Of a DNA stretch of 64,000 nt, positions 8,235 through 33,103 are shown one piece after another (positions within the stretch are counted from its first letter, which is position 1; every line of letters begins with the position of its first letter). The stretch is from a virus. The stretch is from IMG/VR virus record IMGVR_UViG_3300005573_000001. One strand, given 5' to 3'. The position numbers and the translations under genes are program-made. The notes beneath the pieces were generated by a model, which saw only the letters and a list, made by a program, of their open reading frames with translations, had not been told where the DNA came from and did no database searches.

Positions 8235-11200
8235 ATGAACAAGTATCAGGCATACTTGAACAGGGAATACCTGAATACACGAGCACGGGCCACCCGTCAG
8301 CGCCATAACAGAGAAGAATCAAGAGAGAGATTTGCCAACATAGTTGGCAGTCTAGCTACCGCAGCCGGGATAATCGGCGGCGTCTACTTAGTGCGCTCTG
8401 GAAAGCTTGGAGACCTGCTTGGTGGCACACTAGGAGAAGGGCTCTCTCGTAATATAGGCAGTGTCAAGCGCGGGGTGGCAGCCGTCGACTCTGCAATACA
8501 GGCCATCAGTGCCGGCATTAGGGAGCGGGGACTTCTTAAATTTCTCGGTGGCGAAAGCACAGAGTATATAACAAAGAAGTTTGGCCGCATCTATGCAGGA
8601 ACGCTGCGTAAAACAAGTACCGCGCTCTCCGGCACAAGCACTATGATAGAAAACATGGCCAAGAGCTTCGAGCGCATAAGTAGTAGTGCGGAAAAGTCTA
8701 TTATATCCCATGCACGCCTGAATACTATTATAGACAGCGTAGAGAAGCAATTCGGCTCCGAGGTCGGGGCATCGTTCAAGGCGAGTGCTCTGGGTGCGCT
8801 ACAGTCAAGCAAGAACCAAGGGCTCTTTGATACACAAAGCCCCGAACAGTTACTCAAGAAGATAAAGTTAGACAAGAGGATTAGCGCTGAGCAACAGAAG
8901 CAAATCTTTGAACATATACAAGGGTTATACAATAGCGGAGCTCTTAGCGACGGGAACCTTATGAGCCCTGCCAGCGTTAAGGAGCAGGCTGAAAAATTCC
9001 GCCAAGCTATACTGAAGGGTGCCATAGAGACACTAACCCCCAAGAAAGAAAGTATCATGGCTAGGTCTATTCTGGCAAGTGGGGGCAGATACGCAACAGC
9101 CAAGGACATCATAGATAATCCCGACCTAATCCTCAATGAGTCGAGGTTTTTCGGCGTAAGGGAACGGGGTATTAGTAGGGCTAAGGAGTCAATCAAGACG
9201 GGACAGTCGGCGTCTAAGCTAGTCCATGAACAGGTGAGAAGGTTCATCGACGAGATGGTGGCTAACGGTGCGGACCCAAGTAAGATTATAATAGACCCTG
9301 GGGTGCTTATAAATAAGGCCGGAGAAGTAGTAGATATACGCGGACTACAAGATGTGTCCCGCCGCGCCATAAGTTATCTAAGTAATAAGTTTGCTATACC
9401 TTTCGTCAACATAAACCCACTAAATCTGTTACACTTCAATGCACAGGAAGCTGCCCGCGAGGCCCCTATGATGACCGAGCTCTTTCGTGGCGAGTTTCAG
9501 CCCGTAATTACCGGCACGCGCACAAGAATGGAAGAGACACTAGTTCGCGTCGGCAGTAAATTATACAACTATTCTGGCGAAGTAGTATCTAAGATACAAG
9601 GAGGCTACCTTACTTCTAATAGATATGGTACTCAGAAGGAAATTCTAGAGGCCATGGCTGCTGTTGGGGAGACACCAAACCAGGGAATATTACAGGAAGT
9701 CTTGGATATAGGCGGCCAAAGGAGAACATCGGAAATTAGACGGGCTATAGGGTTTTTCAGGAAATTCAACGACCCCGACTGGTTGCCAAATAAGTTACGC
9801 GACATAGAGGATGAATATAAGGTATGGAAAGGTACTAAGGGGGCAGAGTTTCCAAACAGGCGACCTAACGAGGCCATAAGACAACTCTATAGCATATTCA
9901 ATCGCCATGCAGATACGCTAGATACGGATACAATAGAGAGCCTGTCAGGCAAATTAATGGATGTCTTTAAGGGTGTCGGATTCACACCCGAAGACTTTAT
10001 GATGGAGACAGAAGAGGATGTTATGCTTACTCTAAGTAAGTATATATCCAGCAATTATGTCAACCATAACAACCTTATTGATAGACAACTTATTGCGGCT
10101 GCTAAACAGTTTAGGGAGAACCCAGAGGCATTCTTTAAGACAAAGGAAGCTGTCTACAGTCAGGGACCTCCGTTCAATGCCGCAGAGAACCTGCAGTTCA
10201 AAGGCACGTTTCTGCGCACAAAGGTTGGCCGCGTAAAGAGGCAACTACAGCAGCAGTTTTTACAGAAGCTAGCCGATTCGGGTAACTTGCAAGAGTCCGC
10301 ATTAGAAAGCCTTGACGCGTTGCAGCAGCATAAGGTAAATGACCTTCTCACCCTGAACTGGCTCAACGGCTTGCAGTATGACATAAAGAATAATACAGGC
10401 AGACAGGCTGAGAAGATATTCGCAGACGTATGGGCGAATCCCGAGAGCGAAATAAGGTATGCTAAGAATTATACAGAATCAATAAGGCGTAATGTCCGCA
10501 AGTACAACTCGCGTTTCAGTAGTTGGGTCCTTCCGCAGACAGAGACCAGCGAGTTTGGAGACCAACCGTATCTATGGGTTAACAAAGCCGTAAATCCATT
10601 CAAGGCAACCCTCGAGGCTATAAACGAATCCCTCACGAGCGGGAAGAATATGCTTGACGCCATTAAGGAGGCTACAGCAGGCACGTTTTCCCAATTCTTC
10701 GCAGGCCGCAAGAATTTACGCGACGTGACTACGGCGACAATGTTCCCATATTACTTTATGTACCGCCTCAACACTGGGATAAGCACGGTAGGACTAGGGC
10801 TGTCAGAGCATAATATGGGAAGCGCACAGCAAATATTCGCCAACTTACTCGCCAGGCGTTACGGTGCTACCATGCTAGCTCTAGGACTAGCCTCGTATCT
10901 AGCCTATGAAATTGGCAATGCTACTGGTAAGAAACCACAGGATGTCGCGGCCGGTGCTTACGTAAATATGACGCTTGGCATGGCCAAGGTCAAGGACATT
11001 TTCGGTATTACAAACCTCTCTAAGTGGACGTCCAACCTATTTCCAGGATCAGAGCGTCTATGGCAGAACCCAATCGGGGCCGCCATAAAGTACGGCACAT
11101 TCGGGTTAATAGGTGACGACCGGAGCATGGAAGAACTCAAGCGCTATTACCAGAAAGGAAGCGACCCTATTCGAAGTGGCCGTTGGTGGGGCATCGGGTC

Positions 11201-14200
11201 TACGACAGAGTTCCGCGGCTGCCTCACTCCAGAGTCCAAGATACAATGTAGGGGCGGTATGGTAAGCGCAAAAGACATCCGGTTTGGAGATCTGGTACTA
11301 ACGAAGGATGGAACATACCACCCGATAACTGCCATAATTCCAAGAGACACCGCAGAAACAATCTATAAGGTTACTACTATACTGGATGATAGCGAAACAG
11401 TATGGCTTACCGGCAATCATCAAGTACTTGCCATACACACCGGCCATACGCCAGAATGGGTGCCTGTAGAGAATATTACACTTAACGACTATATGTTGTA
11501 CCCCATACCAAAGGGAAACAACGACAGCGATACAATATCCATTGGTGGCACGGTGCTTACCGTTAACAAGTCGCTAGGTAGATTAGTCGGGCTATATACC
11601 GTCACAGGACACTGTGAAACAGGTACGGCCAGCATCTTTAAAAGCCTGGTACCTGGAGAGAATCAACAAAGCAGACACTTGTCCAATACTATAATGGATT
11701 TGTCAAACCTGGACTTCTGGCTTGGCTTTATCGAGGCATTTGAAACAACGAGTATCGAAGTCGCGAACTATCGGCTAGCTAAACAAATACAACATATTCT
11801 TCTAAGGCTCTATATCGTCGCGTCAATATCAACGTCGAATAATGCATACAGAATAGATTATAGTAGCAATAATGGGCTTTATAAGTGGGCAGACGACGAT
11901 ACGCTGGCTGTCGCTATCAAGTCTATAGGGACCGCCTATTACAAGGGGGTAGTGTATGACTTCTCGGTAGATACAGAGCCAAGCTTTGTATCATCCGGTT
12001 ACATTATGCACAACTCAAAGATCTCATACTTTGCGCCAAACTGGTACCGTCGCATGAAGTCAGATTACATGATGACGGACGTAGGGTACGGATCAGAGAG
12101 TGAGTATTGGGCTAACAACTGGCTCCCAACGCCGCGTAACCCGCTTGGACCAATCAAGACAATGATACTTGACCCAAACCATTGGCAGCGTAAACACCTA
12201 AAGGATAGGCCAGCAGCTGTTATAGGCGGAGTCCAAGAATTGCAACAGATACCCCTTGTGGGGCCATTGCTTGACACTACAATCGGTCGAGTCTTAAATC
12301 CACGCAGGCTGCGTGCAGGGTATGCCAGGGCCCACAGGCAATATATCAATAGGATTAACGAAGAGATAAAGGCACGCTACGAACAAGAGAGTCAAGGTGG
12401 GTACTACGAAGTACAGCCAGGTGGCGGCCTAGTTCCTGTCGCAGTCCCCGACGTAATAGAAGCCGGAGACGAGGACATAGTTCCCGCAACAGGCTTAAGG
12501 CCTGGTTACTACGGACGCAACGTGTCAGTTAGTGGTATCCATATCACCGACGAAGTAGCGGACAGCAGGCGGCGCGGGATGGGATATGGTGCAGCCCTAT
12601 CAACCTCAGAACTAAGCGACATCAACGCTAGCTTCACCGCAGGGTCTCGCGTAATACCTATTAGTCCTGCTGCAATGCTCAACTCCATTATGTCTAATGA
12701 AGACTATATGGACGCTTTCCTGCCGACTACTAATCCAAGCAGCGTTTCATACCGGCTTGGCGAAGCTAAGTATAGCCTGACTGAGTTAGCCGGCTTATAT
12801 GGATTCACATTTAATATGTTGTTCGGCGGGGAGGGAGCTGCCTCTGGACCCGTCTTACAGTATGGCGGGGATGCATGGAGCATACAAAGAGCCTTCTGGG
12901 ATATGGGGCTTGGAGGATTCCCGGGAGAACTATCAGAGATAGGACGTAGGTTCATACCGAAGAAACGTACGGAGAGACAGTGGAGTCCGTTCAGGAATAC
13001 GATGCCAGAATGGCTGCCTATGGAGTTTCAATATGGAGACCCCTTTACTAAGATAGCACGTGGAGAAGCGAGACTACCCGGCAGCGGATACGAAAGCCTT
13101 AACCAGCTCCATCCAGATATGTTCGGCGAATATGGAGCAATCGACAGATTTAAGATACTCGCCGATATAGCTCCATACTCGGAACAATACAAATATTACA
13201 GCAAGATACTTACCCTATACAACCAAGCCGGGCTGCTTTCTGACGAAGAAAAGGAAGACATACGGGAAATCAAGCATCAGGTCCATCAGCAGAAACAACG
13301 CTATGACATGACGCCGTATAAGTTTCTATATGCTCACACGCAAAGACATAAGGTCAAGATTAAAGAGGTTATTGATGACATTACGTTCATAGCGGAAGGG
13401 TATGCTCATCCAATGAGATTGGCTGGCATAACCATGCCGCCACAATCGGATACCAGTCCCGGAGCACAAGAGGCAAGAGAATACCTCAGGTCGGTTATTC
13501 GTGGCGGCGCAACCATATGGATAGAAACCGACGCAGACCCGCTCTTCGCTGTCCGCGGCGACGTGATGCAGACTATGAGGGTAGCAGTCTTCGACCAGCA
13601 CGGCGAATCTGTATCCAGTAAGTTGGCACGTACCAAATGGGGCGGCCAGAAGGGCGTAGTCAAGGCTGATTACAAAGATACGAGAGCGACTACAGTACGT
13701 GCGTTATATAGCAAGGGCGAGATAACGGTAGGTAAGGTTTGGGAGCTGTTAGTACACCGTAATAACCCATTCAACAATAAGTTTATGCAGGTACGTAGTC
13801 CATACGAACAATACGTTCGAAGGATGGTATACGGCAAAGACTTTAGAACGTGGCAACACCCAATTAAGGGATTCATACAACCTATTATAGACACCAACGC
13901 GATGCGCAACCCAATACTGGCTACGGCAGTGGGTGCACTCGGAGGATCTCTATTCGGAAGGCGCGGGCAAACCGGGGCCAAACTAATAGGGGCCATTATC
14001 GGCGGCGCTATTATGGGCGGGGCCTCATCTCTACGCGCAATTAACGAGACATGGAATAGAATAACCAAGAGATCCGACTATACGTGGATACCGAAACGCC
14101 GCAGACTAGAACGTGAAATCAACGAATACTTTGATAGACTAACATATATAAAGTATAAGGGCCTATACGAGCGAGCCAGAGAATTGGCTCGCAAGGAAGA

Positions 14201-15035
14201 AGGCGTAGACGTAGAAGAACTAGCCAAGTCTGCTCGAGGCGGCAAGGCAATCAGCAAGCGCAGGAGAAAGGCGTTAGAAGCGCGTAAACGTTGGGTATAT
14301 ACCAATATGGCAAACCCGCTAAACGATCCAGACGTCTGCAAGGCGGAGCTTCAGGCAATAAACGAGGAACTTGGAGAAGTCAGCGGAGACACCGCTAAGA
14401 AGTTATATAGGCTTGGGCCTCTTACTATGAAAGCGCTCGAATTCAAGGGTATATACGAATCCACCCTATATGGCGCGACACCTAGCGGAGACTTACAGAA
14501 GATAATAAGGGCCCTCCCAAAAACAGAGCGTGACTTCTTCTCCGGTTTCCTAACGTCGCCTCCAGAAGAACGAGAGAAAATACTACGAGTAGTTCCTCAG
14601 AACGAACGTAGGTTCCTGCAGGCAATGTGGGGTCTAAAGCCAGACAAGGTGAAGTCAAACGAAGAGTATTTCATGTACCACAACTTGCCGGGACCCCTAT
14701 GGGAGGGCTGGAAGCCAGACGTCTCACTCGAGGCTATCAAGCTAAATACAGCCAAGGCAATGGGCTTGGACGTATCAGACCTAGGCTTTTACCCAAGCGA
14801 TGTCAGCGAGGCTAGAGGAGCTGGGAAGGTTTACACTGGCAAGGGGCTAAACTGGTTCAGCTTCGGCAAGCTACACGGGGTCCTTAAGGGCCTTGGACTA
14901 AAGAAGATAGACATCAAATCTTACCTCGGAAATACGCCGCTTTACGATACACAGGTAGATATAGAGGTCGAGTATGACCGTAAGAACGATATAATTAAGT
15001 CAATGAATGATAACTATAGATCCCTGTTCAGGTAG
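8235..15035 (+). CDS. Tape measure protein (2266 aa precursor, about 2001 aa after intein removal) with degenerate thermonuclease-like domain
   Basis: Very long helical-type protein after the tube and chaperone genes, with several Gly/Ala-rich hydrophobic segments (SLATAAGIIGGVYLV; ATMLALGLASYLAY; ILATAVGALGG...IGAIIGGAIMGG). Confidence 0.75.
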   Translation: MNKYQAYLNREYLNTRARATRQRHNREESRERFANIVGSLATAAGIIGGVYLVRSGKLGDLLGGTLGEGLSRNIGSVKRGVAAVDSAIQAISAGIRERGLLKFLGGESTEYITKKFGRIYAGTLRKTSTALSGTSTMIENMAKSFERISSSAEKSIISHARLNTIIDSVEKQFGSEVGASFKASALGALQSSKNQGLFDTQSPEQLLKKIKLDKRISAEQQKQIFEHIQGLYNSGALSDGNLMSPASVKEQAEKFRQAILKGAIETLTPKKESIMARSILASGGRYATAKDIIDNPDLILNESRFFGVRERGISRAKESIKTGQSASKLVHEQVRRFIDEMVANGADPSKIIIDPGVLINKAGEVVDIRGLQDVSRRAISYLSNKFAIPFVNINPLNLLHFNAQEAAREAPMMTELFRGEFQPVITGTRTRMEETLVRVGSKLYNYSGEVVSKIQGGYLTSNRYGTQKEILEAMAAVGETPNQGILQEVLDIGGQRRTSEIRRAIGFFRKFNDPDWLPNKLRDIEDEYKVWKGTKGAEFPNRRPNEAIRQLYSIFNRHADTLDTDTIESLSGKLMDVFKGVGFTPEDFMMETEEDVMLTLSKYISSNYVNHNNLIDRQLIAAAKQFRENPEAFFKTKEAVYSQGPPFNAAENLQFKGTFLRTKVGRVKRQLQQQFLQKLADSGNLQESALESLDALQQHKVNDLLTLNWLNGLQYDIKNNTGRQAEKIFADVWANPESEIRYAKNYTESIRRNVRKYNSRFSSWVLPQTETSEFGDQPYLWVNKAVNPFKATLEAINESLTSGKNMLDAIKEATAGTFSQFFAGRKNLRDVTTATMFPYYFMYRLNTGISTVGLGLSEHNMGSAQQIFANLLARRYGATMLALGLASYLAYEIGNATGKKPQDVAAGAYVNMTLGMAKVKDIFGITNLSKWTSNLFPGSERLWQNPIGAAIKYGTFGLIGDDRSMEELKRYYQKGSDPIRSGRWWGIGSTTEFRGCLTPESKIQCRGGMVSAKDIRFGDLVLTKDGTYHPITAIIPRDTAETIYKVTTILDDSETVWLTGNHQVLAIHTGHTPEWVPVENITLNDYMLYPIPKGNNDSDTISIGGTVLTVNKSLGRLVGLYTVTGHCETGTASIFKSLVPGENQQSRHLSNTIMDLSNLDFWLGFIEAFETTSIEVANYRLAKQIQHILLRLYIVASISTSNNAYRIDYSSNNGLYKWADDDTLAVAIKSIGTAYYKGVVYDFSVDTEPSFVSSGYIMHNSKISYFAPNWYRRMKSDYMMTDVGYGSESEYWANNWLPTPRNPLGPIKTMILDPNHWQRKHLKDRPAAVIGGVQELQQIPLVGPLLDTTIGRVLNPRRLRAGYARAHRQYINRINEEIKARYEQESQGGYYEVQPGGGLVPVAVPDVIEAGDEDIVPATGLRPGYYGRNVSVSGIHITDEVADSRRRGMGYGAALSTSELSDINASFTAGSRVIPISPAAMLNSIMSNEDYMDAFLPTTNPSSVSYRLGEAKYSLTELAGLYGFTFNMLFGGEGAASGPVLQYGGDAWSIQRAFWDMGLGGFPGELSEIGRRFIPKKRTERQWSPFRNTMPEWLPMEFQYGDPFTKIARGEARLPGSGYESLNQLHPDMFGEYGAIDRFKILADIAPYSEQYKYYSKILTLYNQAGLLSDEEKEDIREIKHQVHQQKQRYDMTPYKFLYAHTQRHKVKIKEVIDDITFIAEGYAHPMRLAGITMPPQSDTSPGAQEAREYLRSVIRGGATIWIETDADPLFAVRGDVMQTMRVAVFDQHGESVSSKLARTKWGGQKGVVKADYKDTRATTVRALYSKGEITVGKVWELLVHRNNPFNNKFMQVRSPYEQYVRRMVYGKDFRTWQHPIKGFIQPIIDTNAMRNPILATAVGALGGSLFGRRGQTGAKLIGAIIGGAIMGGASSLRAINETWNRITKRSDYTWIPKRRRLEREINEYFDRLTYIKYKGLYERARELARKEEGVDVEELAKSARGGKAISKRRRKALEARKRWVYTNMANPLNDPDVCKAELQAINEELGEVSGDTAKKLYRLGPLTMKALEFKGIYESTLYGATPSGDLQKIIRALPKTERDFFSGFLTSPPEEREKILRVVPQNERRFLQAMWGLKPDKVKSNEEYFMYHNLPGPLWEGWKPDVSLEAIKLNTAKAMGLDVSDLGFYPSDVSEARGAGKVYTGKGLNWFSFGKLHGVLKGLGLKKIDIKSYLGNTPLYDTQVDIEVEYDRKNDIIKSMNDNYRSLFR
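11220..12014 (+). mobile_element. Intein (265 aa) in the tape measure gene, with degenerate LAGLIDADG remnants
   Basis: Block A CLTPESKI, block B LTGNHQVL (TxxH), block F VYDFSV, block G YIMHN followed by Ser+1. Internal LVGLYTVTGH / FWLGFIEAF / RLAKQIQHILLRL correspond to decayed blocks C/E/H. Confidence 0.93.
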
Positions 15036-15042
15036 GTAAAAC

Positions 15043-18000
15043 ATGGCAGATAATAGACTCGACAAGATTAAGATACATGGGATTACGTATGTAAGGTCAG
15101 ACAAGCTAAGAACGATAGCTGTAACGCCCAAAGCAGCGCCCTTCAGCGATATACAAGAGAATAAGGTAGATGAGGTTTTCAGCAAGCTGCAAGCTGCAGA
15201 CAAGAACGCAGCCATGTTAAATTCGCCTATGCATCAAATTAATGCTAACGTAGACTTTGGGCGACCTGATATAACGTATCGGAATTACTGCAACATCTAT
15301 GAGAACGGCGGCCAAGTATTCGCGTTCGACATCGAGGGCAACAACACTATTATTGGCGGCATAAAGCAATTTGGTGTAACAGAGATTGGTATACATGGAT
15401 ATAAGGTCCCAGCTAAGGCTATGCGTCAGTCTGAGTCAATAACAAAGAGTAGTAGCTGGAATGCGGCAGTCAGGCTTTCGTCGCCACAGGCGGCATACTA
15501 CAAGAAACTACTGGATAGCGGGGACTTTGCTAGCTTATCTGAAGGAGACGCATGGGCCATATCCACCTTGGCTTCGTATAGCGGTGCCAAGTTTGGACCT
15601 GATGGCAGTATCGTCTCTAAAGGTCCGATACGCGTTTCTCCCAGACACGTAAGGGAATGGCTAGAATCAAGCGCATCTAACGTCAGAGCTGCCCGTGCTG
15701 GCTTAGAGGCGCTTCAGAGACATGGCTTGCCATTAAGTCAGGCTGCCGCACAGGTAAACAAGTATATAGCCGATAATACGCTACCAGGAATGCCAGTATT
15801 CTCGCTTGGGCAGGGCAGCAGGGGGTTTGACCTTCCGATACTACAGCGCGCAGGATTTAATTTACCGACCGATCATATAGACATGTTGGAGCTTATGACG
15901 CAGTCAAAGGAAGCTCCAGAGATACTACGTGGCGCTGCGGACCACATAGTTATGAACTATAGCTTGTCGTCATATGCTAAATCGGTTCTTGGACATGAAG
16001 AAACACACTCGGCTGCCGCAGACGCGGAACTAGTCGGTACCCTGTTTGAGAGAAGTATCTATAAAACAGACAGGCTTAGTCTTGGAAAGAAGAAACCAAT
16101 CAGACAGATGTTCGCAAACCCAGTAGGGGCAGCCATCGAGGCCGATAAGCTATACGCACTGCGCAGCGCATCGACATCCGACGGCAAGGTCCTCTTCGGC
16201 GGTGTCTGGGAGAATGTCAGTAAAAGTAAGAATGGCGAAATCAAGTGGCGACTTAATAAGTATAATACATACCCTGTTAGTAAATATAGTATGTATAGTG
16301 CCTATACATACGATATGCCTGTAAGCGCCATACCTAAAGATATGGCCAGTAAACTAGCCGAGGAACATGGAATTGCGTCTGACGAAACGTTGAAAGTATT
16401 AAAGCTTACTGAACACGGCGGCGACTACGTGTCGCGAATGGTGTTTAGGAACCAAGATGACTTGGAGGGGTTTATACAGCACACCTTTGGACGCCCACCA
16501 AAGAATGGGGCCGCGACAGTAGAGCGACAGGCCCACATGATAGACCAAGCACGTAGACAGTATATCAATACATGGAGCGATGTCGCCAAGTTTACGAAGT
16601 ATACTAAGGCCAGTCAGATACTCAAAAAATACGTAGATACTATGAGTGCGGCTGGAGAAAGATATAGTATACCGACGTTCAATACGATCGACGAGATGGT
16701 GTCTTACTGGAACGACGTCGTAAAGAAAGTTGGCGGCAAAAATCCTCTGAACACAAGGTCTCAAATCAGGGACTTTATCATGCTAGGAGATAGGTATGTA
16801 TCTGAAGCAATGGTTAGAGGGGAGCTTCTCAACGAGCTTCCAACCCTTGAGGACTCATACAGCAAACAGGTAGCGGTACGCCGGCTGTATCACGAACTAA
16901 AGTCGGCTGGCGCACTGCCAAAACCAACTGGAGTTCCATACGCGTCCAAGGCATTTATCCTTAATGTAGACGAGGAGCTTGGAGAGCAGTATTATACCGT
17001 GCTTAATCGCTGGAACAAGCGTGACTTAATACGAGGAATAAACAACGCCATCTATGGTTCAGGTGCAAAGAACATCGGAGCTGTAAATCGAAGAGCTAGA
17101 CTAATCGTTCAAGAACTTGCAGATAGAGGAGTCGTTGACCAGTCTGTAGCTAAAACGTTGCTTGACATGACTACAGGTAGAGGTATCGTAACGCCAACAT
17201 ATATATCCAGCAAATTAGCTTATGCAATCCAACATGGTCCCAGCCAAGATATGCCTAATGGCGAAATCCCTGAAACAATAATGGGGATACCAGTAAGGGG
17301 CACAGTAGAGGACGTACGCAGCAGAATCCGCACAAGAGCTGCCAACGGCGCAGTAGAAAGGGCATTATCCTTTACAAGGCAATTCACCTCCGGTCCCGCC
17401 TCAGGTACAGGTAAACTTACACCAGAAGGTGAGGCAATACTCGAGAAGTATCAGAGTAGGGTTACCAAGAGGCTTAAAGAGAGTCTCGGGGTTACCGGTA
17501 ATATCGGAGAAATAGTAAAGACTAAGACTGGAGCTCGTATCATGATCTCGGTTCCTAATATGAAGGACGAGGTCAATAAGCTCATGGAAAACTGGGGAAG
17601 ACACGGCTTCAGTACTACGCTATCATATGATAGGACGTCCAACACGCTATTAGTTGCCGCGCAACGAAAGAGCATACAAGGCGCTACAGATATAGCGGAG
17701 ACGATCTCTAGCGGAAAGGTCGTTAGGTTTGCCATACCCTTAAGTCATGCCGAGGGATACTATACGATAGGCGGAACACGTAGAATGGCTCCTTTCTTCC
17801 TAAAGGAGGCCAAAGGCACAACACATCGGTTCACGGACATGTCCGTAGAGCTTACACGAAGGTATGCAAACTACGCTAGACTTGTCGCAGAAAAACTAGA
17901 GAGCGGCGCTAGCTATACTGAAGTTAATAATATGATACAGTCACTTCCAGGCAAGATGTTTATGGAAATGACAAACTTGGACTCCGACCTTAAGACTACA

Positions 18001-25200: not shown

Positions 25201-28200
25201 ACTAACGACAAAACAAAGAGTAGCGACCCAAACTATAATACATACTTTATGGATGCAGAGGCGCTATCAGTAGACGTAACGCTCGAAAACGTATTCGCCA
25301 CACAGCAACTCCAAGAAATGCCATCGCCAACGATACAATACTTAGGCAGTCAAGACGGCTATATCAATATAGTCTATCAGACCAACAATATGAACGATGT
25401 CAAGGCGCTTCAAAGGTTATTTTCGACATCACAGCGTATAGCTCGGGACTACAGAATCGCAATTAGTTCAGCCTTCTTAGGCATCGAGAATAGCTTTATC
25501 AACATGATGGGCATAAACCATTGTCTAGTTGATAGGTTCGAGGTGTCAACGATAGCCGGATTTCCTGGCAGCTACAGCATTGCCCTTGCACTCGTCGCAT
25601 TCGACAAATCACAGAGGCGGCGCGAAGAACTTGCGAATATGCCGCTTGCGCCGGATATGGACGAAGATACCACTGTAATGGACTATAAGCTGCAGACTTC
25701 CACAGCAAAGAAGGAAATGTTGCAGAGGATGCAGGCATATAACCTTAAACCTAATAGCTCAAGCGACGACGTAATAAAGAGGATGCCGTTCCTAGGACTA
25801 TTTAGCTTCGTGTCACAGAATGACGACAAACTTAAGAGCGCTATATTCCAGTATAAGCTGCAGACGCAGGAAGTCTACCCAGACCTGGAGCTGCCGACGT
25901 GGGAGGAATTCGCATGCGCCATTCCATACTTGAACTGCGGAATAAAGAGTATAGAGGAGTATAATGATAAACTACAGACGTTTACGGAAGCACCTATAGC
26001 GCAGGCGCGCGGCAAATACGTCGACCCCGACTTCTACATTAAGTGTGACATCACATTCAGTATGGAGACGATAGGGGAGATGTTCGATAATAATACAAAG
26101 GCTATGTTGCTCAAGGATACCTATGGAGCTAGAGCAGCCGACATTGCGCCTGCAGTCAGCATAACTAACGCATTAGGACGTAGCGATGCGTCCGACGAGA
26201 TGCAAGTCCCATATGTATCCTTCAACGATCAGTTCGCATATATGGATTCTGTACAACGTGACGTAGCCGGCCAAATTCAAGCTATAGAAGAACAGAACAG
26301 GAAGGAAGCTTACAATATAGAGCCCGCATCGACCGTAACGGTAGCTATGTGGGCCAACATAGAGCAAGGTGGGTGTGAGTTTAATATGATAGACCCGACA
26401 CCCGACCAAAAGAATTCTGGAGATGAGACATACAGCGAAGACCTATCTATTAGGCCAGAAGGCGATGGCGGAATCCTGAAGCGCATGTTCTCCGACTCCA
26501 ACTTCAATGGCTTCACTAAGGAACCTGGCTTTAACAAGATATACGACAAGCTTCTCGACAGCGAGGTTAACGAGTTATACGCAAAGATACTTGAGGCCGA
26601 GGTTGACAAAACGGTCATTAAGGAACCTACAGACGACGAAGTGGACATCTTTATAGAGGGCATGGCGGCACAACTGTTCCGTACGGTATCCATAGTAGAA
26701 GACGACGGCAACTTAAGCCAGGTCGCTCTTACGCCTAGTACGTGGAAATTTAATCACACGGAATACACACTAAGAACTGGCAACGACGTAGCAAGCGGGT
26801 TCATCATAGAAAGTGCATCTGCTGCTAAAGGAAAGAACAGCTGGACATATGGACAAAGGACCGTTTCGGCACCCCAAATAACCGTACGTAAGGTAATCAA
26901 TGCGTTCAAGGCTATCCTAGATATTGGAAGTCAATGGGATCAATTCATGCAAAACCCCTACCTCGTGCGTAATCAGAAAACACATGTACCCAGAGTAAAA
27001 CTTTACGACGCAGAACACATCGTCACCTACGATGATGGTAGTATCAAAATAGGTATGGCCCAAGTCTGCACTAACTGGGACGTAATCGAAGACGAAGAGG
27101 ACATCGCCAGGCTGGCATGGGACTGGCAATTTAACGTATTCTGCGGATTCAAGAGGTTCATACAACTATTATACAAGAATGCTACTCATGGTAACCATTC
27201 GCATGAAGCATATGCTTGGCCGCTCGATTACGCTATGGCTCAGTACTGGGATATTGACAACGACCTGAATAGTAACATGTACATTCAGACACGCAACAAG
27301 ATGATTAGTAAGTATGGACAAAGGCGTGCTGCTATGGCCAACTTCAGCCATCTAGTTACACAGGGCGTTGCGCACCAAGTACAGGAAGAGTTAGCCATTA
27401 AGCTATATGAACACAACGGCGTAATAGGACAAAGTACAGTACATAATGGCATCTTACTACCCGAACTAAAGTATGCAGACAACTACGTCGGACGGTACAA
27501 CGAGGAAATAAACCTATCTGGAAGCGAATACAATGTAGACATCCAAGAGTGGAGTAAGTTACACGAGGCACTAATAATGGACCGTGCACAAATTGGTGCG
27601 CACATATTACCGCGACTCCCTGTCTTAGAAGTTGGATTCTCTACTAACACAAGCTCCCCCGAACACCTGTCTGTCCCATATATTAGCGCGTTTGCAAGGA
27701 TTGCAGTATTTCAGGCACTAAGCGACTACATCCATAAGGATACTAAGAGAGTAGAGGCAATACAAAATCTAACTAGTGCAATCAATAGCGTACATAGCCT
27801 TATTAGTGTAAGTGAAATTCCGCCCACCGAGAAGGAAAAGAGTATAAAAAAGGTAAGAGATGCTATATTAAACTTGTATAAAACCGATCCAACACTCTTT
27901 GCGTTGTTCATGTACGAGAGCGAAGCATTGCGCGGAGACTGGATTGTGCGCACAGGGAGCGGAGCAACCACAAGTTATATTACAGTACCAATGAGAAGGG
28001 CCGAAGACGGGACCTACAAGACAATATATATCCGGTATGGTATCAATATAAATCCAACTGTCTCACCGAACATGACAATTCCAGCAACGTATATGGGACA
28101 AGAAAATGTAGTAGAGAGCGACTTGGGACCCATAGACATATCGGCATGCAATTATAAGCCAGAGGACGACCAAGTAGTCTTTAAGTGCAGTGTCGACAGC

Positions 28201-31074
28201 GTAAAGTTGATTAAAATTTTCAGCGATGCTGGTCTCGACATAAACGAGCCTCGTAAGACGTATGACTACGAGGAGACTGAGTTTTTACAAAAGCTACGTA
28301 ATGTCACCGGTATCACGAAGTGTTTTAAAGTAGAGATAGTTAAGGAAAAGGATATAGCCAACGAAGAGTATAAGCAGGCATCTAACACGGTATTGACTCA
28401 AAGCATGAGCGTTGCGCACTTTGTGCCGTCAGACGTATTCAGTGACACAGAGTCTTACCAGCGTACCTTTACAGACATGTTCTCGTATGACCATCGGGGC
28501 AGATTACTGCGTGCCTTCCCGACGTTCCAGATGTTCTTAATAGATGAAGGACGATGGGCTATTAACACAAAGCTTTGGGACAACATGTATGGTTACCAGG
28601 CTATTACCAGCATAGACGTAGTCAGGGACAGACGCATGGCCGCAGACACAGCCGTAATACAAATGACAAACCTATACAGCAGTTTGTCAACCAAAGACAA
28701 TAGGTTCCGCGACCCAAGTTGGAGTTACGACCTGCTCAACATGTTCAAGAGCGGACAAACCTTAAAGGTTGTTACAGACTTTATAGGCATAACCACGGAT
28801 GAAATACTCCAAGTACGCCGGCAGCATATAGACAGTATGATGCTCAAACCAGGAGCCCGCATACACTTGCGTATAGGATATGGTTCCAACGCATGTAATC
28901 TTCCTATTGTCTTCAATGGGACCATATCAGAAGTAGACTTACAAGAGGTAGTTACGATAGTAGCACAGGGTGATGGCATAGAGCTATGCAACAAGATGGC
29001 GGGCATTGAGAACACCAACGACAAAGGTTTTATGACAGGTGCCGCTACAGTACGTGAAACGATATGTGAAATTATGACAAGCAGGGGCAGTTGGTTTAAG
29101 GACGCTATTAATCTGCTCACCCAGGGGTTAGTATGGCGCGGGCATCCATTTGGCATAGCACATTTCGGACAAGAGGGCAAGGTACCTGATGCTCTCCTGA
29201 TACCAAGGGTATTCCGTGGACCAAGCGATGACTTTGGCGAAGCCGGAGCCAACGTTTACTCAGCCAACGGAGACGACTGTTACAACAGATGGACTAGTGG
29301 TAGCAGAAAGGTACAGCTAGACAACACTCCAAGCTATATCACGTGGGGAATAAGGCAACTTGGCGGCGACCCCAACGCAAAAACTAGGGACAATAAAGAT
29401 TTAAAGATTAAGATATACAAGCGGGACAAAACCCCATGGGACGTATTTCAGACCTTAGCTGCGGCATGCCCTGATTTCATCTGCGCTGTAGAACCATTCG
29501 AGTTGCGCAGTACACTGTTCTTTGGCAGACCAAACTATGGCTTAGCATACAAGTATGGGTACCTATATGCCTTCAGTAGGGATATTCCGAGCGATCCCAA
29601 TAATGATAAGTCACCCCCTGCAGACCCAGAGTTACGTATGCTAGTTCCGGTAGTAGCGCACGAATACAGGAAGCCCTTTGTACAGTATCATATCTTTAAC
29701 AGTATGATGGATATAATTAATAATAAGATTAAGGCTACAGACATCGGTATGTATACTAACGTACGTGTGTCCTACGGAGGCGTCAGTAAGGATGCCGGCA
29801 CGTTGACGGAAACCATATCTCTGGATGACGACATATTTACGCAGCACCAGAAGACGGCGATTGTAGAGGTAGGTATTGCCAAGGACGACCTACTTGGAGA
29901 CTTAGCTATCAATTACTTTACGCAAGAACTGCATGCGACTAATGCCGGGGCATCGGCACTAGCTGATTTTTGTAAGAATATGTACGACGGCGAGCTGGTT
30001 GTAATGGGATACCCGAGTATAAAGCCCCACGATAAGATATACATCGACGACACGTATAACGAAATGCAGGGACTTGTCGGTGTCAAGCGCGTAATACACC
30101 ACTTCTCATTCGAAACTGGCTTCATTACAAGCATATGCCCCGACTGTATCGCTATCATAGACGACCCGATCGAATCCGCAAGAATCAACTATGTTACGGC
30201 TGCCATCAGTGGAATAGTAGGTGGATTTATCGCCAGAAGAGTTGGTATGTCGCTTATGAGCAGCTTGGTCGGTAAATTGTTTGGACGCGCCTTTATGCGC
30301 AGGCCAGACGAGGCAGCCGGCGAATACGGCGAAGGCATCTTCTGGAAACTATATTCAAAGGCAGGAACATGCGCGAAGGAAGAGGCACAGGAGCGCGTTA
30401 AAATTATACTTGATGCTGTGCGCAATGAAGCGGGAGAGTATAAGGGAATAAAGAAGAGCCGGTATAGCCTCAAGCGAGTAATTGAAGCTATGGAAAATAA
30501 CAAGGGCTACTTTATGGACGCAGACGCATATATGAAAACATACGAAGAAGCCCTGAAGGTTACAAAGGACGTTGAAAAGGCAAGCGCAATAGCGGAAGAG
30601 GCCAGCATAAGCAAATTCCTCAAGTTCTTCAGACAGGTCGATAAGATCGCTGACGTTGCACGGGAGGGCGGCACGATAGCAAGGCTTGGAGGCAAGATAC
30701 TCAAGACAGCTAAAGCAATTATTACGGCCATAGATGCCAGCACGCTTGTCGGCCTAATAGCCTCAATAGGCATCAGTATAGCATGTTCATATCTGACTGA
30801 GTTCTATAGGCGTTGGTTAAGATATAGGCAAGCCGTAATCTTATTCCCTGTCAAATTGCATGGTAAAGCCTTAACAGCTGGTATTAACGGACACATGGGG
30901 TGTGTTTATGGAGACCCGATGGGCGTCCTTGATAAAGTATTGTATAAAGACTTGGAAGGCCTCAATGACTTTGTCATCAACTTCCTCGGCGGCGGCGACG
31001 ATGTTGACGTTTCCGCAAGGTATAGAGTAACTAACCCAGAAGAATGGGTTAACACCAGGGAAACGCAGGGATAG
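22273..31074 (+). CDS. Giant baseplate hub-like virion protein with N-terminal thermonuclease (SNase) domain
   Basis: N-terminal KVVKVYDGDT...VRLVGIDCAE...DTHGRL. C-terminal hub-like motifs (ADTAVIQMTN, PGARIHLRIGYGSN, VFNGTISEV, GELVVMGYPSIKPHDKIYIDD, VKRVIHHFSFETGFITSI) typical of gp27/gpD-like hubs. Located before the spike and wedge genes. Confidence 0.7.
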   Translation: MSNSDNVLSQAEFSSSAVKAFQKAHAQDNINYQFEMFPGGINPDPSGTNGVRITTPECLYGKVVKVYDGDTFDIELYAVSEGLQLWINGGLEDPFLYDTASNKHIYYTVRLVGIDCAELKSTSNSEEKNREYLYYLGIRDTTDTLSRMYDLAEEAKAATAKMVLNKMVVVWLENDVAAPHHVDTHGRLVGCVYVPLTKGNNGSSKDYPEWNQIGINVNTTLLATKTKIFEHENPDTRLAKISIYLDSSNNELVSRFPIAAWANLGMKPGEQQTDEVDTELNRMIDKWLEAISVSERGGVYIGSDGTLWGHKTEGDNIVCKEIIAGGKDGVTFGTRRFVQDDIWVNNLNPIPAAEDEAELSSKGYKLDLQDIPGINQYGYVDTRVRIGDTILTVPPLAIRVRNVTQSTKVNTLRNNSSMQTQSGYVNTVVEMELFFHDLESINGIEIPNPFQNADFTFKDGVPPILTERWKNPYAINGLRSLIAQFKKAPFLPIYCEYLEDAHEIGAVALESINVSTVPGFPNCLMATLVMTAFDWNTYLIDCADFGDKFNWPIFRWYYQHCMQPSKNNKGYDTFTYLPAIGKDNTTSDKISFYIADEGVLAARLWAIKEMRNYISPLDFKEQSKDKTVALGQMQYDGITINSAIDQANRFKQWIAETTDTNRRGNAQVVPDFRCAGMSANDPPVHLPTTYGQVYHILTGGGKYPFNMMPPSINRDGNVVFEQFAGRLCVSTYLGCPVENFYDMFGNPINLYSYNTRPSPYQIFTGHYADYLKHLGKSACAEDVAKMLPEAVWAKYFTEMMEYVYGKNATDYYFVINGMLPTRLYDLTDTGIAMGYALDSVFNNIAFIKFVGMNKIQLLYDSANSKITETTRKNIDDNPYLLAQGGGMMYIPLYAEINSVIIEGSKYVFIDIPSNEESAGCVRVVAAIPLGDDVICAQLKRAAKYYDESIQGYSNFINYMNKFYESDESDLPMLLAVTNDKTKSSDPNYNTYFMDAEALSVDVTLENVFATQQLQEMPSPTIQYLGSQDGYINIVYQTNNMNDVKALQRLFSTSQRIARDYRIAISSAFLGIENSFINMMGINHCLVDRFEVSTIAGFPGSYSIALALVAFDKSQRRREELANMPLAPDMDEDTTVMDYKLQTSTAKKEMLQRMQAYNLKPNSSSDDVIKRMPFLGLFSFVSQNDDKLKSAIFQYKLQTQEVYPDLELPTWEEFACAIPYLNCGIKSIEEYNDKLQTFTEAPIAQARGKYVDPDFYIKCDITFSMETIGEMFDNNTKAMLLKDTYGARAADIAPAVSITNALGRSDASDEMQVPYVSFNDQFAYMDSVQRDVAGQIQAIEEQNRKEAYNIEPASTVTVAMWANIEQGGCEFNMIDPTPDQKNSGDETYSEDLSIRPEGDGGILKRMFSDSNFNGFTKEPGFNKIYDKLLDSEVNELYAKILEAEVDKTVIKEPTDDEVDIFIEGMAAQLFRTVSIVEDDGNLSQVALTPSTWKFNHTEYTLRTGNDVASGFIIESASAAKGKNSWTYGQRTVSAPQITVRKVINAFKAILDIGSQWDQFMQNPYLVRNQKTHVPRVKLYDAEHIVTYDDGSIKIGMAQVCTNWDVIEDEEDIARLAWDWQFNVFCGFKRFIQLLYKNATHGNHSHEAYAWPLDYAMAQYWDIDNDLNSNMYIQTRNKMISKYGQRRAAMANFSHLVTQGVAHQVQEELAIKLYEHNGVIGQSTVHNGILLPELKYADNYVGRYNEEINLSGSEYNVDIQEWSKLHEALIMDRAQIGAHILPRLPVLEVGFSTNTSSPEHLSVPYISAFARIAVFQALSDYIHKDTKRVEAIQNLTSAINSVHSLISVSEIPPTEKEKSIKKVRDAILNLYKTDPTLFALFMYESEALRGDWIVRTGSGATTSYITVPMRRAEDGTYKTIYIRYGININPTVSPNMTIPATYMGQENVVESDLGPIDISACNYKPEDDQVVFKCSVDSVKLIKIFSDAGLDINEPRKTYDYEETEFLQKLRNVTGITKCFKVEIVKEKDIANEEYKQASNTVLTQSMSVAHFVPSDVFSDTESYQRTFTDMFSYDHRGRLLRAFPTFQMFLIDEGRWAINTKLWDNMYGYQAITSIDVVRDRRMAADTAVIQMTNLYSSLSTKDNRFRDPSWSYDLLNMFKSGQTLKVVTDFIGITTDEILQVRRQHIDSMMLKPGARIHLRIGYGSNACNLPIVFNGTISEVDLQEVVTIVAQGDGIELCNKMAGIENTNDKGFMTGAATVRETICEIMTSRGSWFKDAINLLTQGLVWRGHPFGIAHFGQEGKVPDALLIPRVFRGPSDDFGEAGANVYSANGDDCYNRWTSGSRKVQLDNTPSYITWGIRQLGGDPNAKTRDNKDLKIKIYKRDKTPWDVFQTLAAACPDFICAVEPFELRSTLFFGRPNYGLAYKYGYLYAFSRDIPSDPNNDKSPPADPELRMLVPVVAHEYRKPFVQYHIFNSMMDIINNKIKATDIGMYTNVRVSYGGVSKDAGTLTETISLDDDIFTQHQKTAIVEVGIAKDDLLGDLAINYFTQELHATNAGASALADFCKNMYDGELVVMGYPSIKPHDKIYIDDTYNEMQGLVGVKRVIHHFSFETGFITSICPDCIAIIDDPIESARINYVTAAISGIVGGFIARRVGMSLMSSLVGKLFGRAFMRRPDEAAGEYGEGIFWKLYSKAGTCAKEEAQERVKIILDAVRNEAGEYKGIKKSRYSLKRVIEAMENNKGYFMDADAYMKTYEEALKVTKDVEKASAIAEEASISKFLKFFRQVDKIADVAREGGTIARLGGKILKTAKAIITAIDASTLVGLIASIGISIACSYLTEFYRRWLRYRQAVILFPVKLHGKALTAGINGHMGCVYGDPMGVLDKVLYKDLEGLNDFVINFLGGGDDVDVSARYRVTNPEEWVNTRETQG

Positions 31075-31087: not shown

Positions 31088-33103
31088 ATGTCAATAGAAG
31101 TAATGAAAGAATTCTGGGAGTATCTATATCCACGGGTAAATAGGGACATATATATTAATGGAGCACAAGGACATCAAGCGTCAGACGAGTATATTAGAAA
31201 GCATGAGGGCAGTGAAAATAACCATTACAACCGTACAGTAAAGTTGCTAAAAAAGCGCTTAAAGGCCGGCATCAAACAGGAGGATATTCATGCTTTCGAT
31301 TGTTCTGGTCTTGGCTGCAAATTCTTTCTAGAAAAGAAGCTTATCAAGAGAGACTCAACAGCCAGTACGCTATTCCACGGTTATTGTAAGGAAATAACCA
31401 AAGAAGATTTACTGGCTGGAGATATGGTATTCCGTAGGCATAAGGGTAGAGTACACCACGTTGGATACGTCACACCATACGGAGTAATAGAAAGCGCAGG
31501 ACACGACTCTGGCGTTATTGTAGGCCATAAGTGGTATTGGAATGTCTACGGTAGACCGAAGTTCTGGAAGGACGATATAGAAGCATATAATTGTAAGCCG
31601 CAGTATACTTATACGTCCATTCCTGGGTATACCCCCGCGACATCTAGTTCATCGGATAGTAGCACAGACAGCAGTAGCACAGACGACAGTAAAGACTATT
31701 CGTGGTGCAACAGCAACGTCAGTAACCTTCAGGTAAAACAAATAGCCCATATGATCTCGGGCGCTGAGGGTAAGGAAGGCTCTTGTCGCTGGGACGATGG
31801 TAACTGCCTGAGTGTAGGTATGTTACAGTGGCACGGCAATAGAGGCAGAGACCTCATCAAGGAAATAGAAGAGGAGGATTCGTCACAAACACAAGTTTTA
31901 GATAACGGGGGCGTTAGGAGTAGGTCTGAAAGTTGGTCCGACTACATCCCGCCAGCTGGTAGCCAAAGGGACGCTATCGAGTCCGTTATGAAGAGCGATG
32001 CCAGTAAAAAAGTACAACACAGGAAGATTATTAAGGATACAATAAAGTACCTTAAGAAGATCGACGCATGGGGTATGGATAAGCTCACCGTTGGCACTAA
32101 GGCCCTAATAGCTGACCTTTATAATAACGAAGGACATAATGGTCCAACAGTCAAGTGGTGTAGGAAAAATTTTAAGGACGTAACCATCACCTTCGACGAG
32201 GCGTGGCCTAAGATGGATGAGGTACGTCGAGCAGCACGTGATGGCAATAAACGTGTCTATGGGCAACACAAAAAAGCCAAAGCAATAGAAGATGGTACGT
32301 ATAAGCACAAGATAGACTATGAGGATAACGATAGTGATACAGAGGATACGAGTGATAGTAGCGACTCGTTAAGGGAATACGATGACCAGTACATAGTAAG
32401 CGCAACCAAGATTATGAGTAAAATTGTGTACGACGAGAATATGGATGAGAAAACCGCTCGTGGTACAGACCGCTGGATGACCAAGTACATTGCTGAGGCC
32501 GTGGACAAGATGAACGACGCTCAGCGGGCTACAAGCTATACAATACGAAGCGATAATACAAACCAAAGCAGCACCGACCCTACTCTTATACCAGGAACTA
32601 ACTTGAAATATAACCCGTCTGCTACTGGCGGCATATGGTCGCTACCAATTAACAAGGCATATTGTGTGTCGCTAACGCAACTTGACGCCGCAGAGGACGC
32701 CATGGCAGACTACTGGGATGACTCTACCCACCAAGCAGATATGGTCGAACTTGCCGATACTAAGTTCACGTTTGCCGACAAGACACAGAATAAATTCAGG
32801 TCAGACTTTGCCGCATATATGACCATCTTGCGGATGCAGGTCATAACGAAGGGAAACGTATCTACACTAAGGGATGCATCCTGCAAGATGACTGTCATGC
32901 GTGGGTTTACACCGAAGAGCTCCACAGGAGCAGAGAAAGGACATATGGGCGGGATAGCAATAGACATCACGGTTGCCAACCAAGACGACGCAGTGGCGCT
33001 TGCTAATGCCGCAATTACAGCCGGCTTCATGGGCGTAACTATATCAAGCAAGAACTTCGTTCATATAGGCCTATGGGGAACAGGCACAATAACAAACGAA
33101 TAG
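31088..33103 (+). CDS. Virion-associated multi-domain peptidoglycan hydrolase (NlpC/P60 + lysozyme-like + M15-like peptidase)
   Basis: FDCSG...GDMVF...HHVG (NlpC/P60); GAEG...DDGNCLSVGMLQW (lysozyme-fold); HMGGIAIDI...FVHIG (HxxxxxxD...H zinc peptidase). Domains are separated by Ser/Asp-rich linkers. Confidence 0.75.
   Translation: MSIEVMKEFWEYLYPRVNRDIYINGAQGHQASDEYIRKHEGSENNHYNRTVKLLKKRLKAGIKQEDIHAFDCSGLGCKFFLEKKLIKRDSTASTLFHGYCKEITKEDLLAGDMVFRRHKGRVHHVGYVTPYGVIESAGHDSGVIVGHKWYWNVYGRPKFWKDDIEAYNCKPQYTYTSIPGYTPATSSSSDSSTDSSSTDDSKDYSWCNSNVSNLQVKQIAHMISGAEGKEGSCRWDDGNCLSVGMLQWHGNRGRDLIKEIEEEDSSQTQVLDNGGVRSRSESWSDYIPPAGSQRDAIESVMKSDASKKVQHRKIIKDTIKYLKKIDAWGMDKLTVGTKALIADLYNNEGHNGPTVKWCRKNFKDVTITFDEAWPKMDEVRRAARDGNKRVYGQHKKAKAIEDGTYKHKIDYEDNDSDTEDTSDSSDSLREYDDQYIVSATKIMSKIVYDENMDEKTARGTDRWMTKYIAEAVDKMNDAQRATSYTIRSDNTNQSSTDPTLIPGTNLKYNPSATGGIWSLPINKAYCVSLTQLDAAEDAMADYWDDSTHQADMVELADTKFTFADKTQNKFRSDFAAYMTILRMQVITKGNVSTLRDASCKMTVMRGFTPKSSTGAEKGHMGGIAIDITVANQDDAVALANAAITAGFMGVTISSKNFVHIGLWGTGTITNE

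Follow-up and report, generated by a model that had tools for sequence, protein, structure and literature searches.

Three consecutive giant open reading frames (ORFs), lying between contractile-tail genes of a viral genome fragment (IMG/VR virus record IMGVR_UViG_3300005573_000001), raise the question of what such large proteins do in a phage tail. The stretch of DNA analyzed, called the window here, is 64,000 nt long and forms a single long operon of tail genes on the + strand. ORF1 (8235-15035, +; 2266 aa), ORF2 (15043-22260, +; 2405 aa) and ORF3 (22273-31074, +; 2933 aa) are followed by ORF4 (31088-33103, +; 671 aa), with intergenic gaps of 7, 12 and 13 bp. An initial annotation of the locus had proposed a tape measure protein (TMP) with a dead staphylococcal nuclease (SNase), an exonuclease/RNA polymerase (RNAP), an SNase-bearing hub and a lysin, in this order. 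The order is essentially right, and the lengths of the three giant ORFs and the 7 and 12 bp gaps are exact. Virion RNAPs allow phages to start transcription without the host enzyme. The explanation we favor, and consider fairly probable, is that the region encodes the inner tail and hub of a giant phage with a contractile tail, from the 0305phi8-36 lineage, as a cassette composed of a chaperone pair, ORF1 in the tape-measure slot, ORF2 as a virion RNAP, ORF3 as a gp27-type hub with a nuclease, and ORF4 as a wall hydrolase, and that the proteins of the tail lumen would be delivered into the cell.

The central protein is ORF2, the positional equivalent of gp146 from Bacillus phage 0305phi8-36, which is predicted to join an exonuclease, a single-chain RNAP and a tape-measure-like C-terminus. 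Searches with the single ORF2 sequence were blind, including Pfam, PHROGs, phmmer against the PDB, tblastn against phages, two word-indexed homologue searches and the ESM Atlas. An exhaustive representative search found one relative (P0002), and a first AlphaFold2 model from a 2-sequence alignment reached a predicted local distance difference test (pLDDT) score of 31. A single DxDxD motif is present in ORF2, within 'GREPIFHR...(38 aa)...AQADNDGD', and corresponds to the R-x-P and NADFDGD signature that belongs to the eight invariant residues of two-barrel RNAPs (PMC2919709). R1777 and P1779 are located 38 residues N-terminal of D1815, and the Arg-x-Pro of the superfamily (R446/P448 in Rpb1) about 35 residues before the metal loop. 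The loop of ORF2 reads A-D1815-N-D1817-G-D1819, and a switch-2-like 'GGYVGRSAIL' is found at residues 1715-1724. The same motif is kept in the positional homologues, as NRYP...ADYDGD in KLEB27-3 gp034, NRYP...ADHDGD in Edson 0920 and SREP...GDHDQD in ME3 gp036. R1777, P1779, D1815, D1817, D1819 and G1956 are invariant across the 35 sequences, which share 12-19% identity with ORF2.

Profile comparisons and structure prediction agree with this motif, and assign residues ~1557-1900 (19711-20742, +) to a beta-prime-like part with the catalytic double-psi beta-barrel. All eleven PDB matches of the ORF2 family profile (11/11 at E<=10) are largest subunits of RNAPs, with the beta' chain of the phiKZ non-virion RNAP (nvRNAP; 7ogp) on top (E=1.5e-4). 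By hhalign, residues 1698-1827 were aligned to residues 327-472 of E. coli RpoC (E=1.7e-5, probability 78%), and the aligned stretch spans 'GGYVGRSAIL' of ORF2, 'GKRVDYSGRSVI' of RpoC and both metal loops. The AlphaFold2 model built with the 35-sequence alignment, from which locus segment L074 was left out, is poor overall (pLDDT 55), and its core at residues 1614-1874 is confident (pLDDT 74-93). Foldseek returned at least 500 matches to this core at E<=1e-3, and the 50 best consist entirely of beta', Rpb1, phiKZ or AR9 RNAP chains (E~2e-6). An independent comparison by VIA-align ranked RPA1 (Z 11.1), Rpb1 (10.7), archaeal A' (10.3) and vaccinia Rpo147 (10.1) highest, followed by AR9 nvRNAP (9.9) and Mycobacterium tuberculosis beta' (9.7); lower scores were obtained for gp96 of Thermus phage P23-45 (Z 7.5, barrel only, 93 residues) and QDE-1 (Z 6.2). 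Membership of the beta'-type barrel and its D-x-D-x-D metal loop in the two-barrel RNAP superfamily is thus confirmed at the level of profiles and predicted fold, with RNA synthesis as the predicted activity.

A beta-subunit-like part was recognized upstream of this barrel, at residues ~890-1350 (17710-19092, +), from collinear motifs in a clade of 17 sequences. The motif 'IPL..(D/E)G....G..R' at 897-914 ('IPL..EG....GG.RR' in ORF2) resembles residues 126-146 of E. coli RpoB, 'YM.D' ('YMED' in ORF2, with D1145) resembles E813/D814, and K1282 with K/R1289 resembles K1065/K1073, the Rpb2 equivalents being K979, K987 and D837. The three motifs occur in the order of a beta subunit, and the spacing from the aspartate to the lysine is 137 aa in ORF2 versus 142 in Rpb2. 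The hhalign comparison of the ORF2 family with RpoB was not significant (E=0.11), and a regular-expression search for the beta motif 'K..K..D..NP' across the wider family gave no match; the K and K/R pair alone is conserved, and restricted to the exonuclease-bearing clade. Taken as a whole, residues ~890-2000 look like a compacted two-barrel RNAP of the single-chain beta::beta' fusion type.

The N-terminal part of ORF2, residues 80-345 (15280-16077, +), is a conserved DnaQ-like 3'-5' exonuclease of the DEDDh type, with a long insert between ExoI and ExoII and with catalytic residues predicted to be intact. D96, E98, D263 and D280 do not vary among 14 sequences, most of which also have H322/D327; ExoI is represented by D96/E98, ExoII by D263 and ExoIII by H322/D327. 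Pfam alone did not detect this domain. The profile of the 14 sequences matched best to 9mrc, a 195-aa DEDDh-type exonuclease, in the PDB (E=4.2e-9), and further to Exonuclease I, a Cas2-DEDDh fusion and proofreading domains of family-B DNA polymerases. The exonuclease/RNAP assignment of the initial annotation is therefore borne out for both enzymes by profile matches, and for the polymerase also by fold searches. The other end of ORF2, residues 2185-2405 (21595-22257, +), is a C-terminal module in which a hydrophobic Gly/Ala segment (2280-2300), a linker rich in Pro and a terminal domain are found. These last ~220 residues include 'GGKLIGGVMAASLAAALFAG', and according to BLAST this module is the only region besides the catalytic core that is conserved family-wide. 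Long helices are predicted at residues 1875-2174 by AlphaFold2, at low confidence. The C-terminus may thus be tape-measure-like, being helical with one hydrophobic segment and a conserved terminal domain, and ORF1 intervenes between the chaperones and ORF2.

The distribution of the cassette was surveyed in related genomes. A tblastn search of 50,697 phage records placed ORF1 and ORF3 in one lineage, with 25-35% identity over parts of the proteins. Its members are the Bacillus phages 0305phi8-36, KLEB27-3, Edson and WH1, the Moorella phage MTATph1 and the Acinetobacter phage ME3, and all six genomes share a common order of a pair of small 'tail chaperonin' genes, giant genes 1 and 2, a giant hub gene and small baseplate genes. 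Loci were gathered with an alignment of the ORF1 C-terminal family (A6), yielding 49 loci from IMG/VR and 79 from metagenomes. An ORF1 homologue followed by a complete ORF was present in 45 unique loci, and in 39 of them an RNAP core is encoded by this following gene. The R-x-P...DxDxD motif is found in the next ORF of most loci, and this ORF ranges from 2026 to 3161 aa where the core was found. Both the RNAP core and the exonuclease are present in 13/45 loci. The third ORF is visible in 31 loci and carries the hub SNase in eight, all of which also bear the exonuclease. The arrangement with an RNAP in the tail is thus lineage-wide and the adjacency of the genes is conserved, so that the lack of conserved adjacency named in the initial annotation as a refutation was not observed, while the full three-enzyme version, seen in eight loci, marks a subclade including this window and Bacillus phages. 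The RNAP family includes phages of human gut and bioreactor origin in addition to the Bacillus phages.

The same survey bears on the nature of the particle, since the initial annotation had considered a headless injection system besides a phage. No capsid or terminase gene was seen within the 64-kb window, which carries only tail genes, and the locus could be read from this as a headless contractile injection system (extracellular contractile injection system, eCIS, or tailocin) armed with nucleic-acid effectors. All cassette-bearing relatives, however, are complete phage genomes or viral contigs of 170-264 kb, several of them rated 100% complete; the protein of this locus is recorded on a 174-kb contig, and 0305phi8-36 is an isolated myovirus. 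The cassette therefore most likely belongs to the tail of a phage, and a headless system is highly improbable.

The RNAP core is absent from six of the 45 loci, one of which is 0305phi8-36. Its gp146 (L001:17624-25237) has no DxDxD loop and no match to the RNAP-core hidden Markov model (HMM) of the family, unlike the 39 positional homologues, and L019 is grouped alongside. Either the polymerase was lost from gp146, or the slot is occupied here by a different protein. Elsewhere in its genome, 0305phi8-36 has a YonO-like polymerase, gp99 (L136). In MTATph1 (L003:5730-13086), the middle giant gene encodes a mere 1309 aa, and an annotated transposase and two short ORFs separate it from the hub gene; the DxDxD loop was not found in this middle giant gene, and an insertion element appears to have disrupted the RNAP gene. 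Genes in pieces were also observed in L043, where the RNAP motif lies in a 670-aa ORF (L043:19416-21425), and in L015, where the RNAP gene is truncated at 2026 aa (12068-18145) and a separate 419-aa C-terminal piece follows (18088-19344). These could be due to frameshifts, assembly errors or recoding.

From five isolated phages, the tail RNAP and the YonO-like RNAP (PF05183) had seemed to be mutually exclusive, which was overturned by contigs with both or neither. A PF05183 match accompanies the tail RNAP in two complete viral contigs of ~213-245 kb, with 80.6 bits in G010 (containing L023), above the family cut-off, and with 18.3 bits in G009 (containing L014; E=4.4e-5), below it, and five contigs without the tail RNAP core have no such match. 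G010 at least may possess a pair of virion and non-virion polymerases, as in P23-45.

To our knowledge, a two-barrel RNAP associated with a tail or tape measure has been experimentally shown only in the Thermus P23-45 siphovirus group. The closest precedent for ORF2 is gp96 of P23-45 (also of P74-26, G20c and TSP4; PDB 8h2m/8h2n), a virion two-barrel RNAP fused to the TMP (PMC10770324). Both proteins have a DxDGD metal loop of the two-barrel RNAP type, are encoded in the tail module, are joined to tape-measure-like sequence with a helical region and a membrane segment, and would be expected to be ejected with or before the DNA to transcribe the first genes. P23-45, in contrast, is a siphovirus with the RNAP at the N-terminus of a single 5002-aa TMP, whereas the tail here is contractile, the RNAP is encoded in the second giant gene after the chaperones, and the polymerase lies mid-protein behind a DEDDh exonuclease. 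ORF2 is structurally nearest to multisubunit beta'/Rpb1 (Z 9.7-11.1), above gp96 (Z 7.5 over 93 barrel residues), and hhalign of the ORF2 family against residues 1-1200 of gp96 gave no match. Since there is no profile match, beta'/Rpb1 is nearer, virion type and gene position differ and an exonuclease is added, ORF2 does not appear to fall in the gp96 family.

Other giant polymerases were compared as well. Gp66 of phi14:2, a crAss-like phage, and the virion RNAP (vRNAP) of N4 are packaged in the virion and injected, as ORF2 would be, and are, like ORF2, giant proteins of more than 2000 aa with an embedded polymerase, encoded among structural genes. The former is a member of the QDE-1/YonO-like clade and the latter is T7-like, both in podovirus-like particles, whereas ORF2 has beta/beta' motifs of the multisubunit type (QDE-1 Z 6.2). 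The beta::beta' fusion polymerases of mobile elements, such as NCgl1702 of Corynebacterium glutamicum, are giant single polypeptides which keep ~40 core residues in beta-then-beta' order and evolve fast (Ruprich-Robert & Thuriaux 2010, PMC2919709). By this description ORF2 is like them in its single-chain beta-then-beta' plan and fast evolution; neither an exonuclease fusion nor a tail-module context is reported for NCgl1702. The gene order gp145-gp146-gp147 of 0305phi8-36 is the same as here, and ORF1 and ORF3 are clearly homologous to gp145 and gp147. This phage differs in that gp146, published as the tape measure, has no RNAP core, that a transglycosylase in gp147 takes the place of the ORF3 SNase, and that the YonO-like gp99 is encoded separately. 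For 0305phi8-36, only the YonO-like enzyme is listed by Iyer et al. 2021.

ORF3 (2933 aa) is homologous to gp147, KLEB27-3 gp035, Edson 0910, WH1 gp094, MTATph1 CDS0032 and ME3 gp037 by tblastn, and phrog_20474 matches its residues 2058-2893 (E=5e-199). Its identity as a baseplate hub follows from the homology to gp147, which was placed in the T4 gp27 / P2 gpD hub family (Hardies 2007, PMC2147016). An SNase (thermonuclease) domain is located at residues ~55-200 (22435-22872, +). It scored 23.8 bits against Pfam PF00565 as a fragment and 19.8 in the whole protein, with a gathering cut-off of 21, and the profile of its family (A5) matched 259 SNase chains in the PDB (top E=4e-5). D68, D70, R110, D115, E118 and R187 are kept, so the enzyme is predicted to be catalytically intact and of the Ca2+ type. 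By HMM, an SNase domain at the N-terminus of the hub is conserved in 15 loci, and an SNase on the hub of a prophage relative, BtI1, has been reported (Hardies 2007, PMC2147016). Two hydrophobic Gly/Ala/Ser-rich segments are present near the C-terminus, at residues 2638-2672 and 2814-2843 (30184-30801, +).

The hub of contractile devices is known to carry enzyme domains in evolved VgrG and T4 gp5-gp27, as it does here with the SNase of ORF3 and, in relatives, with lysin domains. ORF3 differs from evolved VgrG in being a 2933-aa phage hub with the nuclease at its N-terminus, and no genes of a type VI secretion system or eCIS are present. Of the analogies to eCIS and evolved VgrG drawn previously, the resemblance to an evolved VgrG holds for the hub with its N-terminal enzyme domain, whereas a tape-measure-associated virion RNAP fits the locus as a whole better. 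The following ORF4 (671 aa) is a putative tail-associated multi-domain cell-wall hydrolase. It had been described as a three-enzyme hydrolase, of which an NlpC/P60 domain (residues 68-137, E=2.3e-6) and an LAS/M15-like zinc peptidase (HH_signal, residues 597-660, 22.3 bits against a cut-off of 22.1) were recovered. The third, a lysozyme-like domain in the middle, is a weak lead, with weak Atlas hits of region 207-560 to VgrG3-C-like and endolysin-like domains.

ORF1 (2266 aa) lies directly 3' of the two-gene tail assembly chaperone pair (7201-7626 and 7646-8230, +), and so takes the canonical tape-measure slot. The chaperones are homologues of 0305phi8-36 gp143/gp144, and BLASTP against gp143, gp144, WH1 gp098/gp097 and KLEB27-3 gp029/gp030 gave E-values from 1e-11 to 4e-33. 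At its C-terminal end, the first protein resembles the N-terminus of the second (E=4e-10), and this arrangement is like the two-gene chaperonin with overlapping domains described for 0305phi8-36 (Hardies 2007, PMC2147016). Homologues of ORF1 itself were found by tblastn and BLASTP in 0305phi8-36 (gp145), KLEB27-3 (gp031 and gp033), Edson (0930), WH1 (gp096) and MTATph1 (CDS0026). A hydrophobic segment is present near its N-terminus (residues 33-53), and a pair of Gly/Ala-rich, glycine-zipper-like hydrophobic segments was noted by inspection at residues 1893-1945 (13911-14069, +), where Pfam gives a weak Gly-zipper match (E=0.068). With these, hydrophobic Gly/Ala-rich segments occur near the C-termini of all three giant proteins, as first annotated.

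Which of the two proteins is the ruler of the tail deserves consideration, because the literature named gp146, not gp145, as the tape measure of 0305phi8-36. In such an arrangement ORF2 would be a TMP-RNAP fusion of the P23-45 style that sets tail length, and ORF1 a separate internal tail or pilot protein forming a membrane channel. The name of orf146 came from the correlation of its length with the long tail (Hardies 2007, PMC2147016). The C-terminal third of ORF2 is predicted to be long-helical, with a hydrophobic segment and a conserved C-terminal domain in addition, and the RNAP of P23-45 is part of the TMP itself. On the other hand, the chaperone pair directly precedes ORF1 rather than ORF2, membrane-type segments are more numerous and stronger in ORF1, and about 1900 of the 2405 residues of ORF2 are globular enzyme domains, which leaves only ~400 helical residues as a ruler. 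We consider ORF2 as the true tape measure to be credible but rather unlikely. The tape-measure assignment in the 0305phi8-36 lineage, in either case, calls for re-examination, with ORF1 in the canonical slot and gp146 bearing the name.

Each giant ORF had been said to possess a nuclease-family domain, and this stood for ORF2 with its DEDDh exonuclease and ORF3 with its intact SNase; the 'dead SNase' of ORF1 is probable only. Residues ~1705-1800 of ORF1 (13347-13634, +), conserved in its homologues, probably form a degenerate SNase-like oligonucleotide/oligosaccharide-binding (OB) fold, as judged by hhalign with the hub SNase family (E=2.5e-4, probability 43%). The HMM of the hub SNase cross-matches residues 1387-1449 of gp145 (E=5e-4) and the same region of one other ORF1 homologue. 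Neither Pfam nor the PDB gave a match for this region, and its profile returned only spurious phosphoglycerate mutase matches from the PDB. The catalytic positions of SNase are substituted in ORF1 ('IDDITF', 'MRLAGITMPP') and in the homologues ('DQNT', 'IKLAGVSIK'); the domain would therefore be inactive, if it is an SNase fold. Residues 552-623 of the ORF1 homologues in L063 and L064 also matched the hub-type SNase HMM (E=1e-4), and may be an additional SNase-like domain.

An intein is inserted in ORF1 at residues 996-1260 (265 aa; 11220-12014, +), with Cys1, a C-terminal His-Asn and Ser+1. It was matched by Pfam Intein_splicing (37.1 bits, cut-off 35.8) and by Hint_2, and is exactly inserted relative to gp145, between residues 661 and 667 of the latter. 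The intein contains a LAGLIDADG-like stretch 'LGRLVGLYTVTGH', and splicing would have to come before tail assembly. In KLEB27-3 (L002:9827-16980), two genes share the ORF1 homologue, gp031 (1340 aa) and gp033 (677 aa), between which the 211-aa gp032 and non-coding DNA are found. At this break, which corresponds to residues ~1600-1613 of ORF1, an intron or a homing endonuclease could have been inserted, or the gene could be truly split.

The cassette is a real and conserved feature of these phages, and the delivery of its proteins is a hypothetical step. Both gp145 and gp146 were detected in 0305phi8-36 virions by mass spectrometry, according to notes in record NC_009760, and gp034 of KLEB27-3 and gp095 of WH1 are annotated as 'structural protein' and 'virion structural protein', respectively. 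For the TMP-fused gp96 RNAP of P23-45, injection and transcription of the first genes have been demonstrated or proposed (Chaban et al. 2024, PMC10770324). From this precedent, the virion detection of gp145 and gp146 and the structural annotations of gp034 and gp095, we infer delivery into the cell, and a transcription enzyme encoded by the phage is probably carried in its contractile tail. ORF1 and ORF2 would assemble on the hub within the tail tube, anchored by their C-terminal modules. Upon sheath contraction, the hub and the ORF4 enzymes would open the cell wall, the lumen proteins would be expelled, and the hydrophobic glycine-zipper segments might help to form a passage through the membrane. 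The polymerase would then transcribe the first phage genes on the incoming DNA, independent of the host RNAP as with gp96 of P23-45, and the exonuclease and hub nuclease might act on incoming or host nucleic acid. Possible roles of these nucleases are resection of the entering DNA end, transcript editing, and attack on host or extracellular nucleic acid.

Several points weigh against this explanation. We infer virion carriage, ejection and polymerase activity alike for the protein of this phage. The only homologue with published proteomics is gp146, which has no RNAP core, so its detection in virions tells only that a virion protein is encoded in this slot. The beta-like barrel is suggested by motifs, without a confident fold or a significant profile match, and a folded polymerase of ~1100 residues has no obvious fit in the lumen of the tail tube.

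The enzyme domains might instead act outside the cell or at its surface, or be structural relics that are not injected. The hub SNase, for example, would then clear extracellular or wall-associated DNA, and the polymerase-like protein would be late-only or an assembly scaffold. SNases are usually Ca2+ enzymes of the extracellular type, an envelope-attacking transglycosylase takes this position at the hub N-terminus in gp147, some relatives also encode a YonO-like polymerase, and 0305phi8-36 manages without the tail RNAP core. A polymerase, however, has no substrate outside the cell, and the ORF2 gene sits in a late structural operon among virion genes. Moreover, the invariance of R, P and D-x-D-x-D in 35 homologues at 12-19% identity, together with the likewise invariant acidic residues of the exonuclease, argues for selection on catalysis. 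We therefore regard action at the surface, or a relic, as improbable, and retain the explanation with a delivered virion polymerase.

A more far-reaching form of this explanation can be put forward tentatively. A large unannotated family of contractile-tailed giant phages may store an exonuclease-coupled single-chain beta::beta' RNAP within the tail beside the tape measure, and upon contraction the polymerase would be threaded into the cell before the DNA. The fused exonuclease would prepare the genome end, for instance by exposing a single-stranded template, or edit transcripts, and the glycine zippers of the three proteins would build a trans-membrane conduit. If true, a virion transcription machine assisted by a nuclease would be seen here for the first time, and the 'tape measure' of the 0305phi8-36 lineage would have been misassigned.

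The cassette extends tail-module RNAPs, here a predicted single-chain enzyme of the multisubunit (beta::beta') type, to giant myoviruses of a wide lineage. Isolated phages of Bacillus and Acinetobacter belong to it, and in their records the gene is annotated merely as 'structural' or 'hypothetical'. In the searchable literature we came across no account of a DEDDh exonuclease joined to an RNAP, and in full-text literature no paper on an RNAP in a tail module of the 0305phi8-36 type; the RNAP census tables of Chaban et al. (PMC10770324) do not contain these phages. The fusion of RNAP and DEDDh appears to be a new domain combination, to which the intact nuclease on the neighboring hub adds. KLEB27-3, Edson and WH1 are in culture, which makes enzymology, packaging and ejection testable in tractable hosts.

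Among the genes that flank the cassette in the window, PHROGs assigned a sheath (1153-2616), tube paralogues (2639-3259 and 3686-4963) and baseplate wedge genes of the W/J type (34123-35361); the label 'major head protein' given to the tube paralogues is wrong, and the same mislabel is found in the 0305phi8-36 record. Two sheath-like paralogues (1-537 and 1153-2616) and two tube-like ones are present, as gp137/gp139 and gp140/gp141 are in 0305phi8-36. An N-terminal extension of the second tube paralogue (425 aa) gave weak PHROG matches to families of terminases and helicases. Candidates for further virion enzymes or adhesins are encoded downstream, at 47615-48781, 52983-56471 and 59958-61745. 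They comprise a 388-aa LysM/endolysin-like protein, a 1162-aa protein with a C-terminal T4 Gp10_C baseplate domain (E=5e-31), and a 595-aa protein carrying a discoidin (F5/8 type C) domain.

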